From: an uncultured Bacilli bacterium
Lineage (GTDB): Bacteria > Bacillota_I > Bacilli_A > RF39 > UBA660
Assembly (NCBI GenBank): GCA_944363715.1
Contig: CALVUX010000008.1
Coordinates: 2,928 to 66,927 of the forward strand
Direction of reading: 5' to 3'
Length of the DNA: 64,000 bases
A program made the position numbers and the translations under genes. Of the stretch, positions 1 through 47,900 are shown piece by piece (positions within the stretch are counted from its first letter, which is position 1; each line of letters opens with the position of its first letter). The notes below the pieces were generated by a model. The model was not told the DNA's origin, searched no databases, and was given only the letters and a program-made list of their open reading frames with translations.

Positions 1-392
1 AGTCTTGTAAAAAGGCAGATATTTATGATGTAATTATGGATCTTGATGATAAATTTAATACTTTTGTTGGTGAAGGGGGAGTGATGTTAAGTGGTGGTGA
101 AAAACAAAGACTTGCTATTGCTAGAACATTACTTACGAAAAGTAATATAATTTTATTTGATGAAGCGACAAGTGCATTAGATAATGTTACTCAAGATAAA
201 GTTCAGAAAGCTATATATGGATTAGATAAAGATAAAACAATACTAATTATTGCTCATAGATTATCTACTGTTAATAAATGTGATAGAATAGTAGTTGTAG
301 ATGATGGGAATATTGTTGATATTGGTACACATAAGGAATTATATAAAAGATGTAGTAAATATAGAGAGTTATATGACTGTGAGGCAGTTTAA
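1..392 (+). CDS. ABC transporter ATP-binding/permease protein, C-terminal fragment (5' end lies outside the window)
   Basis: Frame is open from the window edge. ABC signature LSGGEKQRLAIARTLL, Walker B ILFDEATSALD and H-loop IIAHRL are present. Confidence 0.8.
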   Translation, partial: SCKKADIYDVIMDLDDKFNTFVGEGGVMLSGGEKQRLAIARTLLTKSNIILFDEATSALDNVTQDKVQKAIYGLDKDKTILIIAHRLSTVNKCDRIVVVDDGNIVDIGTHKELYKRCSKYRELYDCEAV

Positions 393-404
393 ATTTTTAT
401 CATA

Positions 405-758
405 AGTGTTTGCATAAATGTAATAATTATGATAAGATGTATATGTAAGAAAAATTTTCATACACTATAAAAGGAACACTTAATATTGTCGTGTTGAGTG
501 TACCTCTAATTATATTTTTGTTAGAGACACCTAATTCAATAGTTGTGAGTTAGGTGACTTTTTCTATATTAAGACTAAAAGTAGTAGCAAATTCTGAAAA
601 AGGATAATAATTACTAAAGATAAAATTAAAAAATCTTTCTTGTTCATTATTTCGACCTCCTTTCTGAGGCCACACCCAACTATTAAATGTTCCTTATAAA
701 TATAGTATCAAATTAATTTCTGTATAGCAAGAGAAAATGTAATAAATTAGTTACAAAT
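405..758 (-). repeat. Copy A of the ~355-bp type I TA-like module (reverse orientation)
   Basis: Near-identical stretches shared with 43237..43590 and 44463..44819, e.g. aaatgtaataaattagtt, ccaactattaaatgttcc, aaaaggaacacttaatatt. Hairpin cacctaa(N15)ttaggtg at 528..556. Confidence 0.8.
564..647 (-). CDS. Small hydrophobic peptide (27 aa, MNKKDFLILSLVIIILFQNLLLLLVLI); candidate type I toxin
   Basis: ATG preceded by the SD aaaggagg. Paralogous to the peptides at 43343 and 44567. Too short for the ORF track. Confidence 0.4.
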   Translation of the reverse strand: MNKKDFLILSLVIIILFQNLLLLLVLI

Positions 759-785
759 TTTCGTAATATTAGATGTGTTAAGGTA

Positions 786-1685
786 GTGATATTTATGATT
801 CTTTTTGTGAGTGGTAGATGTGATATAGTAGCTTTCTATACTCCTTGGTTTATTAATAGATTAAAAGAAGGGTATGTGGATGTTAGAAATCCTTTTTATA
901 AGAAGCAGGTGAGTAGAATATATTTTAATGATGTGGATTTAATTTACTTTTGTACTAAGAATCCTAGACCTATTGTTCCTTACTTAAAAGAGATAGATAA
1001 GCCTATACTATTTAATGTTACGATTACTCCTTATAAAAGAGATATTGAACCTAATGTATTAGATAAAGATAAGATAATTGAAAGTGTTATAGAAATATCT
1101 AAGATTATTGGTAGTGATAATATTTATGTTAGATATGATCCTATATTTTTAAGTGATAAATATAATTTAGATTATCATATTAAAGCATTTGATAGACTTT
1201 GTAGTTTACTTAATGGATATGTTAAACATATTATAGTATCTTTTATAGATGATTATAAAAATGTAAGGAAGAATATGAAAGTTTTAAGAGTCAAACCTTT
1301 TGACTTTAATGACTATAAAACAATTGGAACATCTTTTAGTTCTATTGCAAGTAAATATAATATGACAGTACAAACTTGTTTTGAAAAAGAAAATCTTGTA
1401 GAGTATGGTTTTATTAAAGGTGATTGTTTAGGAGTAGAACTTGCTAAAAGACTTACTGGTAAAGATAGGTTTAAAAAGAGTAAAGTTAGAAAAGGTGGGC
1501 TATGTAATTGTGTAGAAATGGTTGATATAGGGTATTATAATTCTTGTAAACATTTTTGTAAGTATTGTTATGCTAATTATAGTGAGAGTGAAGTTGTTAG
1601 TAACTTTATGAAACATAATGTAAATTCATCTTTACTTATTGGAGAGTTAGAAAAAGATGATATAATAAAGGTAAGAAAAAGTTAA
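786..1685 (+). CDS. DUF1848 family protein
   Basis: N-terminal DIVAFYTPWFINRLKEGYV and a C-terminal Cys cluster CNCVEMVDIGYYNSCKHFCKYCYA, matching the DUF1848 layout as recalled. Confidence 0.5.
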   Translation: MIFMILFVSGRCDIVAFYTPWFINRLKEGYVDVRNPFYKKQVSRIYFNDVDLIYFCTKNPRPIVPYLKEIDKPILFNVTITPYKRDIEPNVLDKDKIIESVIEISKIIGSDNIYVRYDPIFLSDKYNLDYHIKAFDRLCSLLNGYVKHIIVSFIDDYKNVRKNMKVLRVKPFDFNDYKTIGTSFSSIASKYNMTVQTCFEKENLVEYGFIKGDCLGVELAKRLTGKDRFKKSKVRKGGLCNCVEMVDIGYYNSCKHFCKYCYANYSESEVVSNFMKHNVNSSLLIGELEKDDIIKVRKS

Positions 1686-22117: not shown

Positions 22118-22119
22118 TA

Positions 22120-22458
22120 TTTTAGACAAGTGCTGGGATTAATTCCTAGAGGAAAGTCCATGCTCACACAGTCTGAGATGATTGTAGTGTTCGTGCTTAA
22201 GGAAAAAATAACTTAAGGTAGTGTTTAACACTAACGGCTTAGTCTTTACCTAAGGGTTTTCTATGGTAAAGGCTTATAAAGTGCCACAGAGACGAGTGTC
22301 TAGGAAACTAGATGAGTGAAACGCGGTAAACCCCACGAGTGAGAAACCCAAATTATGGTAGGGGAGCTTTAAGAAAAGAAATGAATTTTCTTAAGGACTA
22401 GAAATAGTAGATAAATACTTGTCACCTAGAAATAGGTACAGAACATGGCTTATTAAAT
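22120..22458 (+). ncRNA. rnpB: RNase P RNA, bacterial type B
   Basis: Conserved blocks GAGGAAAGTCCATGCTCACAC, AGTGCCACAG-GACG, AACGCGGTAAACCCC-CGAG-GAGAAACCCAAAT, GGTAGGGGA and ACAGAACATGGCTTA, all collinear with B. subtilis rnpB. It sits downstream of gpsB as in Bacillus. Confidence 0.85.
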
Positions 22459-43145: not shown

Positions 43146-43236
43146 GTATTTAGGCTCTTTTATAATAAAGTTTATATATAACATGATTATTTTCAATAAT
43201 ATAATTAGAAACTATTTTCTATTTGCGGGAATTCGC

Positions 43237-43590
43237 AACTAATTTATTACATTTTTCTTGATATATAGAAATTAATATGATACTATATTTGTAGGAACAT
43301 TTAATAGTTGGGTGGATATCTCCTAGAAAGGAGATTGATATTATGAATAGAAAAGATTTATTAATAGTCTCTTTAATCATAATTATCCTTTTACTTATAA
43401 AGTTATTATTTTTAGCGATATAAATAAAAGCCACCTAACTCACAACTGTTGAATTAGGGGCTAATCCATAATATAAAAATTTGGAGGTCCACTCAACATG
43501 GGAATATTAAGTGTTCCTTTTCATATTGTATGAATTTTTCTTACAAATATACTATATCATAGTTATTACATTTATGCAAATTTATTTTTA
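43237..43590 (+). repeat. Copy B of the ~355-bp type I TA-like module
   Basis: Collinear with copy C (44463..44819) and, as reverse complement, with copy A (405..758). Confidence 0.85.
43343..43423 (+). CDS. Small hydrophobic peptide (26 aa, MNRKDLLIVSLIIIILLLIKLLFLAI); candidate type I toxin
   Basis: SD aaaggag sits in the 3' arm of the hairpin atctcc/ggagat. Two paralogues exist in the window. Confidence 0.4.
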   Translation: MNRKDLLIVSLIIIILLLIKLLFLAI

Positions 43591-43621: not shown

Positions 43622-44344
43622 TTATGATAGACTTCTATTTGTAATATCTGCTCTTTCTCTTTGATTTAGACCATAACAACTAACTGGTGTTAAATTATTA
43701 TTCTTATCTTTTACAAAAACATCAGTAAATCTATAAAAGTTATCACTTGTATTATCGTAGAATACAAAGTTAATGTCGCCTGTACTTGTAACTAGACATG
43801 CTGTAAGTTCTGCCTGTTTAGTCTTAAACACTTGATTATCTTGATTCATTTAAATATAGCTAGTGAAATCGTCTAGAGAAAAGTTTTCACTAAAACTTCC
43901 TCTTGGGTGGGAATGTCCGTGACAGACAACAAAACCATTATATCGGTTATTATTAAGTTTATTTACTAAATCATTTCTCATATTTTCATCATAATTTGCT
44001 TCTGCTCTTTGTCTATTATCTCTTGAGCTTGATGCAATAAAACTATCAAATTCTATTACATTGTTTTCAACTTCTTTTCCATATAGGAAAAATGGTACTT
44101 CTTTTTTCTCTATATTGGTAACATCTTGTACTCCTAACAAAGATCCATATACTTCTTCACTTAATATTATTTTTGAGTTTGGCATATTATTTATAATATC
44201 AGAATTAATTGGAGTCATTTCTCCATAAGCACTATATGTATTGAAGTTTTGTTGATGGTAAGCTCCGTAAGGATTTTTATGAATCATAATGTCTTTTACT
44301 TTTTGTGAGTATTGTTCTCTAGTCATAATTATTTTTCCTTTCAA
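43622..44344 (-). pseudogene. RadC-like JAB/MPN-domain protein interrupted by an in-frame TAA (ORFs 43850..44344 and 43622..43849 abut as ...TSYI*MNQ...)
   Basis: HGHSHPRGSFSENFSLDD resembles the RadC JAMM motif HNHPSG...S..D. The two ORFs are contiguous in one frame. Confidence 0.4.
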
Positions 44345-44462
44345 TGTTTTATTAATAGTTATATTGTCAATAATTCTATCTAATAATTATTTTAGCATAA
44401 TTCTTTCATTTTCGGTATTGTATATTTAATAATAAAAAAATGATATATTTACGAAAACCTGT

Positions 44463-44819
44463 AACTAATTTATTACATTTTTCCTTGTTATCTAGAAATT
44501 AATATGATACTCTATATGTAGGAACATTTAATAGTTGGGTGGGACCTCAGAAAGGAGGTCTAGCTAATGAACAAGAAAGATTATTTGATTTTTTCTTTAG
44601 TAGTTATGTTGTTTCTTCAAGATATCTTGTTGCTATTTGCCATACTTGCTTTAAAATGAAAGAAACCGCCTAACTTACAACTGTTGGATTAGGTGGCTCT
44701 CGAAAAATAATTAGGGGTCCACTCAACATGCGAATATTAAGTGTTCCTTTTAATATTGTATGAATTTTTCTTACAAATATACTATATCATAATTATTACA
44801 TTTATGCAAATTTATTTTT
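44463..44819 (+). repeat. Copy C of the ~355-bp type I TA-like module
   Basis: See copy B. Confidence 0.85.
44567..44659 (+). CDS. Small hydrophobic peptide (30 aa, MNKKDYLIFSLVVMLFLQDILLLFAILALK); candidate type I toxin
   Basis: SD aaaggagg sits in the 3' arm of the hairpin gacctc/gaggtc. Confidence 0.4.
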   Translation: MNKKDYLIFSLVVMLFLQDILLLFAILALK

Positions 44820-46821: not shown

Positions 46822-46931
46822 AGTCTAAAATCAATCCTTTCTACTTTTTAAAGTATAACATAATTTTTCATTAAATTATCATATTTTTTACATAATTTTT
46901 GTGATATAATCTATTCTAGGTGAGGAAGAAG

Positions 46932-47900
46932 ATGATAGATAAGCAGTTTAAGAATCTTGAAGAACAAATAGAAATACTTAAATATAAGGGTATGACTATT
47001 ACAGATGAAAAATATACTAAGAAGATATTACTAAGAGAAAATTACTTCTTTATATCTGGTTATAGATATCCTTTTATGAGAAGTATGACTGATAAACATT
47101 TCTTAGAAGGGGTTACTTTTGAAGAGATGTATAGTTTGTTTCTATTTGATAGAGCGATTAGAAATGTGTTCTTTAAGTATTTACTTGTTATTGAAAATAA
47201 CTTAAAATCTATATTTTCATATCAGTTATCTAAGAAATATGGATATAAAGAGAAATATTATTTGCGTAATAAAAACTTTACTAATGATAAGAATAAACAA
47301 AAACAAGTAAATGATTTGATTAAAAAGATGAAAAGACAAATTAGGATTAATGGAAGTCAACATACAGCGACTGCACATTATATGTCTAATTATGGTTATG
47401 TTCCACTTTGGATTTTAGTTAAAGTTTTATCTTTTGGAATAGTTGGAGAATTATTTTCAATAATGAAATATGATGATCAAGTAAATATTTGTAAGATTTA
47501 TAATATACCATTAGATGATTTTAGTAATTATTTACCAATACTTTCTAATTATCGTAATTTGTGTGCTCATGAAGATATTTTATATGAAAATAGAACTCAG
47601 AAGAAAATTAAAGGAACGAAGTTTCATGAGTTACTTGGTTTAGAAAAAGATGATGAAGGGTACTATACTAAAGGAACTAATGATTTATTTGCCCTTCTTA
47701 TTATAATGAAGAGAATGTTAAGTTATGATGAATTTAAAGATATGTGTTTAGAGCTTGATAAAAGAATAGATAATCTTGAATATAATTTGCATAGTATTAA
47801 AATAGATAAAATATTAGAAAAAATGGGGTTTCCTAAAAATTATATGGAACTTGCTAATATTGAGAGGAGAGATGTAGATAATGAAGTCAGAGAGAATTAA
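46932..47900 (+). CDS. Abortive-infection protein, Abi_2 (AbiD/AbiF/AbiD1) family
   Basis: Family hallmarks: EQIEILKYKGMTI, YFFISGY, FLFDRAIRN, IENNLKS, YVPLWILVKVLSFG and the invariant YRNLCAHED. An extended -10 TGaTATAAT lies upstream at 46903..46910. Confidence 0.75.
   Translation: MIDKQFKNLEEQIEILKYKGMTITDEKYTKKILLRENYFFISGYRYPFMRSMTDKHFLEGVTFEEMYSLFLFDRAIRNVFFKYLLVIENNLKSIFSYQLSKKYGYKEKYYLRNKNFTNDKNKQKQVNDLIKKMKRQIRINGSQHTATAHYMSNYGYVPLWILVKVLSFGIVGELFSIMKYDDQVNICKIYNIPLDDFSNYLPILSNYRNLCAHEDILYENRTQKKIKGTKFHELLGLEKDDEGYYTKGTNDLFALLIIMKRMLSYDEFKDMCLELDKRIDNLEYNLHSIKIDKILEKMGFPKNYMELANIERRDVDNEVREN

Follow-up and report, generated by a model that had tools for sequence, protein, structure and literature searches.

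What occupies the short interval between an ABC-transporter gene (ABC_tran, 3..392) and a DUF1848 gene (786..1685) near the beginning of the window, the 64,000-nucleotide stretch of DNA analysed here (27.9% G+C), and how is its recurrence elsewhere in the same stretch to be explained? The first-pass annotation placed a reverse-oriented copy of a repeated module at 405-758 between these two genes, both of which are identified as such by Pfam, and made its reading depend on alignment to two sister copies, B and C, over most of the length. Such an alignment is readily obtained: in a BLASTN comparison of 351..800 with the window, copy A matches copy B (44810..44449) at 80.2% over 368 nt (E=3e-89) and copy C (43580..43230) at 79.6% over 362 nt (E=2e-80), and both matches lie in the orientation opposite to copy A, in agreement with the reversal that had been described. 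The homologous region thus stands as proposed except at its right edge, where homology reaches approximately 766, and copy A is delimited here as 405..766, aligning to its sisters at about 80% over about 360 nt. A three-way MAFFT alignment of copies A, B and C gives 83% mean column identity, with the non-coding blocks more conserved than the peptide open reading frame (ORF).

The features of this module are best accounted for by a type I toxin-antitoxin cassette that the window carries three times, copy A being one instance, a reading to which we assign a probability of about three in four. The same elements recur on the plus strand in copy C (43223..43580; peptide ORF 43343..43423, candidate antisense RNA at about 43553..43419 on the minus strand) and in copy B (44449..44810; peptide ORF 44567..44659, candidate antisense RNA at about 44783..44654 on the minus strand, with its -35 element at 44809..44804). 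The earlier description had the orientation, the ORF, the hairpin and its T-run right, and had overlooked the convergent antisense gene and with it the toxin-antitoxin nature of the module. Read as such cassettes, the three copies account for otherwise puzzling repeats in the host genome and would provide terminators for three adjacent genes. To our knowledge, genome annotations hardly ever include type I toxin-antitoxin loci, and the examples described so far belong to a few cultured lineages; the present family, well defined and abundant, extends them to uncultured gut Bacilli with small genomes.

The wider family was delineated by a pattern search for the inverted blocks in a single genome of each species, which yielded 120 loci, and by searching these with a profile built from the three window copies, which placed about 80 module copies in about 60 of the loci, corresponding to about 60 species-level gut metagenome-assembled genomes (MAGs). 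All hosts are uncultured gut MAGs, labelled as Bacilli, Tenericutes, Mollicutes, Erysipelotrichaceae or Candidatus Onthousia, with a few Muribaculaceae and Clostridium labels among them, and tandem arrays of the module are common. These approximately 80 natural sequence variants already map the RNA structures of the family.

On the minus strand, a putative sigma-70-type promoter (702..730) combines a -35 element TTGCTA (730..725), a 17-nt spacer, and a TGa-extended -10 element TACTAT (707..702), from which transcription would start near 695. A TTG-like -35, a spacer of 16-18 nt and a TAnnnT -10 located 5-12 nt before GGAAC are found in 66 of 72 copies, the hexamers being conserved and the spacer variable. 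Upstream of this promoter (751..766, minus strand), members of the window's subfamily, and no others, have a hairpin (TTACGAAAATTTGTAA) with a T-rich tract behind it; this is probably an insulator terminator against read-through into the toxin gene, its arms covary in close relatives (TTACGA/TCGTAA, TTGCGG/TCGCAA, GCTACG/CGTAGC, TGGTAA/TTACCA), and its counterpart in copy C (43223..43238) scored as terminator-like. Also within this subfamily, the motif TTATTACATTT (outer block AACTAATTTATTACATTTT) lies directly upstream of the toxin -35 in all three window copies and is repeated on the same strand within the antisense-promoter spacer, where it is likewise conserved; it could be a regulator-binding site common to both promoters.

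The predicted transcript carries a 27-aa ORF (564..647, minus strand; MNKKDFLILSLVIIILFQNLLLLLVLI) whose charged N-terminus leads into one hydrophobic helix extending to the C-terminus; as the first-pass annotation had noted, the frame is present at 647..564, and it is preceded by the Shine-Dalgarno (SD) sequence AGGAGG (662..657). The counterpart peptides of copies B and C, MNKKDYLIFSLVVMLFLQDILLLFAILALK and MNRKDLLIVSLIIIILLLIKLLFLAI, comprise 30 and 26 aa, respectively, and across the family the peptide spans 26-30 aa, its initial MxKKD preceding about 22 hydrophobic residues (consensus M-N/S-K-K-D-F-L-I-F/L-S-L-V/I-I-I-I-F-L-L-L-F-L-L-F-I-V-L-I; invariant residues K3, K4, D5, L7, I8, I15, L21 and L22). 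A small hydrophobic protein of under 60 aa on a short mRNA, as is characteristic of the type I class, is thus encoded. The ORF is intact, with a GGAGG-type SD, in 64 of 72 non-redundant copies and is under purifying selection: pN/pS is 0.31 and median dN/dS 0.19 over 38 different coding sequences of 81 nt, and the entropy by codon position is 0.71/0.28/0.87, third positions being the most variable. In four copies (L056 3478..3881, L022 170..553, L066 5296..5679 and L111 3565..3947) the ORF has decayed through frameshift, start-codon loss or duplication and the RNA elements have been kept, which suggests that the toxin was inactivated and the antisense gene retained. The peptides are essentially unannotated; searches of Pfam and NCBIfam with the three window peptides at E up to 10 returned no match beyond one noise hit, and an exact look-up found only the copy B peptide, as one unnamed entry. 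A bacteriocin precursor exported by the ABC transporter was also considered and set aside: the peptide carries no leader motif, other copies and orthologous loci have no ABC neighbour, and an antisense gene is present.

Translation of the peptide would be restrained by the 5' UTR (648..695, minus strand), which consists of the block GGAACATTTAATAGTTGGGTG at 693..673 and a hairpin in which, in copy A, GGCCTC (671..666) pairs with GAGGTC (659..654), thereby covering the SD. Such an SD-sequestering hairpin is predicted in all 54 unique 5' UTR variants (mean z -3.2), with the SD in the 3' arm and about 78% paired, and its arms are diverse in sequence (GACCUC/GAGGUC, AUCUCC/GGAGAU, AUUGCC…/…GGCGAU, ACCUCU/AGAGGU and others).

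Equally important is the opposite strand, on which a candidate antisense gene converges on the toxin gene. Its promoter (410..438, plus strand) comprises a -35 element TTGCAT (410..415), a 17-nt spacer, and a TGa-extended -10 element TAAGAT (433..438). The promoter motif occurs in 71 of 72 copies, with the -10 extended by TGn in 65 of them, and keeps a constant spacing of about 34-35 nt from GGAAC; its spacers vary among copies and its hexamers are conserved. The antisense (antitoxin) RNA that it would produce, approximately 120 nt long (445..563), is predicted to consist of a 5' hairpin (445..463), an A-rich linker, a middle hairpin (476..500), and an intrinsic terminator (528..563). The hairpin of this terminator, at 528..556, is the one singled out in the first-pass annotation, and both it (11 pairs, loop of 7) and the TTTTT on the plus strand (559..563) are as described there. 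Followed by ACTTTTTC, it is the sole terminator-like site in 300..900, in shuffled versions of which an average of 0.1 is found. With a T-run defined as at least 6 T in 9 nt, the central hairpin is followed by one on the antisense strand in 64 of 69 copies, including copies B and C, where that strand is the minus strand, versus 1 of 69 on the toxin strand. Since the antisense-strand T-run is so widely kept and a conserved antisense promoter lies 5' of it, its primary role is to end the module's own antisense RNA.

The folding of this RNA is strongly supported for two of its three helices. Copy A has a fold z of -4.65, and a covariance model (R1, 125 model positions) scores 99.9 bits on 436..568 and recovers 85 copies in the loci. 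In the resulting alignment 83.6% of cells are paired versus 76.3% in shuffles, 22 of 27 pairs show double changes versus 10.8, and the covariation score is 0.257 versus 0.132; the observed values were reached by none of 500 shuffles, and slid controls gave 0.04-0.08. Helix 3, that of the terminator hairpin, has double changes in all 11 pairs, with 88.9% of cells paired, and it is helices 2 and 3 that are strongly supported, the register of helix 1 being still mixed in this alignment (60.6% paired). RNAalifold on a plain MAFFT alignment returned only 11 pairs because the hairpins are misaligned there, and the covariance-model alignment was used instead. A 20-aa ORF on the same strand (491..553; VLSVPLIIFLLETPNSIVVS) was weighed as a coding alternative and rejected, its length ranging from 5 to 24 aa and its sequence being unconserved across the family; it has a similar form in copy B and is broken in copy C, its NTG start overlaps paired bases of helix 2, and it is probably not coding. 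The antisense gene is accordingly best described as that of a structured non-coding RNA whose transcription we infer from promoter and terminator. The RNA also carries an anti-SD-like stretch, ACCUCU in copy A, which could contact the toxin SD in trans in the manner of SprA1as, the Staphylococcus aureus antitoxin RNA that contacts the SD of its toxin mRNA.

Another key element is the 3' end of the toxin mRNA. Beyond the ORF, the toxin strand holds a region X (513..473) followed by a T-run (472..465), together 465..513, in which X repeats the 5' UTR block in inverted form (…CACTCAAC…ATTAAGTGTTCC) and is hence complementary to it. A T-run after GTTCC, behind X, is present on the toxin strand in 63 of 69 copies and probably marks the end of the toxin mRNA, for which a median length of 229 nt from start site to T-run is inferred. 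As a toxin-strand T-run is absent after the central hairpin (one exception in the 69 copies) and present after X, the toxin mRNA most likely extends past the central hairpin to include X; moreover, complementarity of the antisense RNA to it requires such coverage, because the 5' parts of both RNAs are of the same sense. No canonical stem-loop terminates the toxin mRNA in the window copies, where just the helix between its ends and the T-run are present; several relatives have an extra toxin-strand stem-loop terminator further downstream, overlapping the antisense -35.

Between the 5' end of the toxin mRNA and its own 3' UTR, a pairing of 25–30 bp conserved across copies is predicted. In minimum-free-energy folds of the inferred mRNA, this closing helix reaches at least 15 bp in 62 and at least 10 bp in 68 of 69 copies, counts that carry an ascertainment bias, as the outer helix is partly imposed by the search pattern; the fold z values of the window copies are -3.8, -5.9 and -7.7. 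Cognate duplexes of 5' UTR and X are more stable than non-cognate ones (-31.0 vs -26.7 kcal/mol; median rank 7 of 68), a comparison rendered slightly conservative by a few mis-anchored rows, and for the variable inner segment alone the values are -5.66 vs -4.18, a difference that none of 5000 permutations reached. Compensatory exchanges include a change from G-C to A-U (UUGGGUG:CACUCAA to UUAGGUG:CACUUAA), for which there are 6 variants and 5 G·U intermediates, as well as outer-helix position 13, which is A-U in 39, U-A in 10 and C-G in 3 cases. Pairing on the toxin strand is favoured over that on the other strand in 68 of 69 copies, a preference resting on two family-wide wobble positions, and within the variable segment duplex stability shows no strand asymmetry. 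The complementarity of 5' UTR and X might, with lower probability, reflect an inverted repeat at the DNA level instead of RNA pairing.

This last point is shared by a very improbable alternative, namely that the repeat is a small non-autonomous mobile element of the MITE type whose internal inverted repeat (5' UTR block against X) serves as a transposition signal and not in RNA pairing. Such an element would fit the multiple copies, the sharp left edge of homology in copy A at 409/410, which is the -35 of the antisense promoter and the exact point at which homology with orthologous loci begins, the three different left-flank contexts seen in relatives, and the lack of strand asymmetry in the variable segment. 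However, the inverted repeat is internal, not terminal, neither terminal inverted repeats nor target-site duplications were seen in the alignments of copies and loci, no match to the module was found in phage, plasmid and IMG/VR collections, and mobility leaves the selected ORF, the promoters and the SD hairpin unexplained. Mobility and toxin-antitoxin function are in any case compatible and not mutually exclusive.

Under the toxin-antitoxin reading, the elements can be arranged into a working mechanism. The minus-strand promoter would drive transcription of a toxin mRNA some 230 nt long, from roughly 695 to 466, encoding the 27-aa peptide with its one membrane-spanning helix, its ribosome-binding site hidden in the local hairpin and its extreme 5' end paired with X in its own 3' UTR, giving a closed, translationally inert RNA. 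The convergent extended -10 promoter on the plus strand would give the non-coding antisense RNA, some 120 nt long and running from roughly 445 to 563, which would end at the hairpin 528..556 with its T-run and be complementary to the toxin 3' UTR throughout, X included; on this layout X would be the core target of the antisense RNA. As long as it is abundant, the antisense RNA would form duplexes with the toxin mRNA and lead to its decay, probably by RNase III as in bsrG/SR4 and txpA/RatA, keeping peptide synthesis off; upon its loss, the stable toxin mRNA would be remodelled or otherwise activated and the peptide would damage the membrane. Toxicity, RNase III dependence and the activation step are proposed by analogy with bsrG/SR4, txpA/RatA, hok/Sok and aapA1/IsoA1. 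A simpler switch, in which antisense binding to X would free an anti-SD to close the SD, was discarded: the thermodynamic model gives an SD accessibility of 0.22 with X free and with X blocked, and because the two states do not differ, a direct translational switch is not claimed. Weighing against the type I reading are this unchanged accessibility, the absence of sequence similarity to known type I toxins and antitoxin RNAs in Pfam, NCBIfam and Rfam, the missing stem-loop terminator of the toxin mRNA in the window copies, the dependence of the strand preference on two wobble positions, and the bias that the search pattern imposes on the outer helix.

Much of the same evidence would suit a small membrane protein without toxicity, such as a regulator or an accessory subunit, tuned by a cis-antisense RNA and forming no addiction or defence module. 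A conserved ORF, an antisense gene and RNA structures fit a regulated small-protein gene equally well, and neither Pfam nor NCBIfam relates the peptide to known toxins. What renders this alternative unlikely is, on the one hand, the genomic behaviour of the module, whose multiple copies, tandem arrays and decayed copies are type I-like and unusual for housekeeping small proteins and whose genomic neighbours vary and boundary is sharp, and, on the other hand, its design, in which three layers of translational and transcriptional insulation guard a peptide that is essentially one hydrophobic helix.

Comparison with described systems likewise argues for a type I toxin-antitoxin cassette. In the Bacillus subtilis systems with 3' overlap, duplex formation is followed by RNase III-dependent decay, and the SD is sequestered in the 5' UTR, as it is predicted to be in the module. 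In Gram-positive type I families the antisense RNA lies on the 3' side and partly overlaps the toxin mRNA (T1TAdb paper, PMC8594479), and the matching layout of the module, with a non-coding antisense RNA gene of extended complementarity adjacent to and overlapping the toxin gene, as read from the sequence, supports the type I reading. With bsrG/SR4, txpA/RatA, bsrE/SR5 and yonT/SR6 of B. subtilis the module shares a small hydrophobic toxin, convergent genes and a 3'-complementary antisense RNA (PMC8594479). It differs from them in having no peptide or RNA homology by Pfam, NCBIfam or Rfam, in an antisense RNA that halts at the toxin stop codon and overlaps the ORF by at most that codon, and in an antisense target that also pairs with the mRNA's own 5' end; with respect to TxpA/RatA and BsrG/SR4, therefore, sequence homology is absent and a 3'-side antisense RNA overlapping the mRNA 3' end is present, the layout being deduced from promoters and terminators. 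At gathering thresholds, Rfam identified RNase P alone in the window and no module family (the RNase P RNA, class B, at 22118..22457 on the plus strand, scores 288.7 bits, consistent with a Bacillota host), and in a permissive scan the BsrG model reached 9.6 bits at E = 7.5, which is noise.

Closure of the toxin mRNA by long-distance pairing of its ends is described for hok/Sok of plasmid R1 and aapA1/IsoA1 of Helicobacter pylori (PMC5416894 and PMC6733600). In these systems, as predicted for the module, 5'-3' closure renders the toxin mRNA inert and stable. They are Gram-negative, however, and their antisense RNA is directed at the 5' region of an mRNA processed at its 3' end, whereas that of the module would target the 3' partner of the closing helix, with no sequence homology between them; the likeness would be a mechanistic resemblance only, peptide homology being absent. 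Fst/RNA II (par, Enterococcus pAD1) and SprA1/SprA1as of S. aureus are convergent genes whose antisense RNA does not overlap the ORF (PMC8594479), and with these the module shares Gram-positive hosts, the convergent arrangement and the absence of ORF overlap. Fst systems have a shared bidirectional terminator and direct repeats that provide 5' complementarity; in the module, by contrast, the terminator is unidirectional (64/69 vs 1/69), the repeat is inverted and the 5' parts of both RNAs are of the same sense, and the window peptides gave no Pfam or NCBIfam match of the Fst type (Fst_toxin) at E up to 10. As modelled here, the module would combine a Gram-positive 3'-antisense layout with hok-like closure of the mRNA ends. 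Literature searches on the peptide motifs and on type I systems in Erysipelotrichaceae or Tenericutes retrieved no description of it. Because Pfam, NCBIfam, Rfam and the literature yielded no match, and because the module departs from each known system in its defining sequence or architecture, it looks like a new, undescribed family of type I toxin-antitoxin cassette.

The first-pass annotation had further proposed that the module may terminate the ABC transcript. The ABC stop codon (390..392) lies 17 nt from the antisense -35, with no terminator-like site before 528..556. Since the module begins so close behind the ABC stop and the antisense gene is co-directional, ABC read-through would stop at the 528..563 terminator, carrying the antitoxin sequence. 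Termination of the ABC transcript is plausible on these grounds and would be secondary to the module's own function. The sister copies are similarly placed, a SpoIID-like gene ending 5 nt from copy B and a JAB-like gene pair pointing into copy C. Family-wide, in raw counts that ignore shared ancestry, the gene flanking the antisense promoter is directed into the module 40 times and out of it 10 times, and the gene flanking the toxin promoter faces away 32 times and toward it 20 times; ignoring ancestry likewise, 30 of 76 copies have the antisense -35 no more than 45 nt from the end of a co-directional ORF that is at least 90 aa long. Typically, then, the module appears to sit in the terminator position of a host gene, where read-through would yield RNA of antitoxin and not of toxin sense. 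This family-wide bias supports ABC termination as a by-product or an exploited feature of the cassette, and the strong preference for the spot directly behind host genes bears on how such cassettes are insulated from host transcription or exploit it.

Taken to its extreme, the same bias would make the repeat mainly a terminator or insulator cassette for its neighbours, its ORF and antisense features being incidental, and an ABC gene without a terminator of its own, together with the position behind a co-directional gene in most copies (40 toward vs 10 away; stop within 45 nt in 30/76), would agree with this. Yet about 40 nt suffice for a terminator and the module spans 360, it contains two conserved promoters and an ORF shaped by purifying selection, its 5' UTR structures covary, and ABC adjacency is not conserved in orthologous loci, all of which leave this explanation very improbable. 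Orthologous copies on the DUF1848 side have other left neighbours in L118, L064 and L069, and in L118 and L064 they abut a different, 655-aa gene. On the source scaffold upstream of the window start (L121 1..2598), the ABC gene is full length (579 aa, ABC_membrane and ABC_tran) and has a type IV secretion system coupling-protein gene (PF02534) in front of it. The sequence to the left of copy A may therefore be part of a conjugative element, and this could account for its difference from the orthologous loci.

Within the toxin-antitoxin reading, a more specific joint proposal can be put forward tentatively, and we hold it to be doubtful as a whole: a three-way RNA switch composed of the 5'-3' lock, the SD hairpin and the antisense duplex, together with toxin control coupled to the transcription of a neighbouring gene. 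In the switch, the antisense RNA and the 5' end of the toxin mRNA would compete for one site in the 3' UTR; in the coupling, a cassette in the terminator position of a host gene would receive antitoxin sequence through read-through, as the 3' UTR of that gene. We know of no type I system for which either the three-way switch or the read-through coupling has been described.

Several further observations concern the distribution and surroundings of the module. Muribaculaceae-labelled loci are L006, L044, L057, L073, L114, L115 and L119, and Clostridium-labelled ones L012 and L081; of these, L057, L073, L114, L115, L119, L012 and L081 bear the module. Such module contigs in Bacteroidota or Clostridium MAGs could be mis-binned low-GC Bacilli contigs or the product of horizontal transfer. 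In a close relative (OZ006970.1), L030 1915..2311 contains a third, partial copy between a C-like and a B-like copy, which covers model positions 2-110 only (the upstream hairpin, the toxin promoter and the start of the 5' UTR) and has no equivalent in the window. Between copies C and B, two ORFs of 164 and 75 aa (43622..44344, minus strand) lie contiguously in the same frame, a TAA being directly followed by ATG. In the 164-aa product there is an HxHxHP…S..D motif; PADLOC matches this product weakly to JAB (E=0.003) and Pfam gives no match, and the pair may represent a split or pseudogenised JAB/MPN protease. Approximately 2 kb from copies B and C lies an AbiD/Abi_2 abortive-infection gene (46920..47900, plus strand; PADLOC AbiD E=1e-59, Pfam Abi_2 E=2e-41), so that this part of the window may constitute a small defence island.
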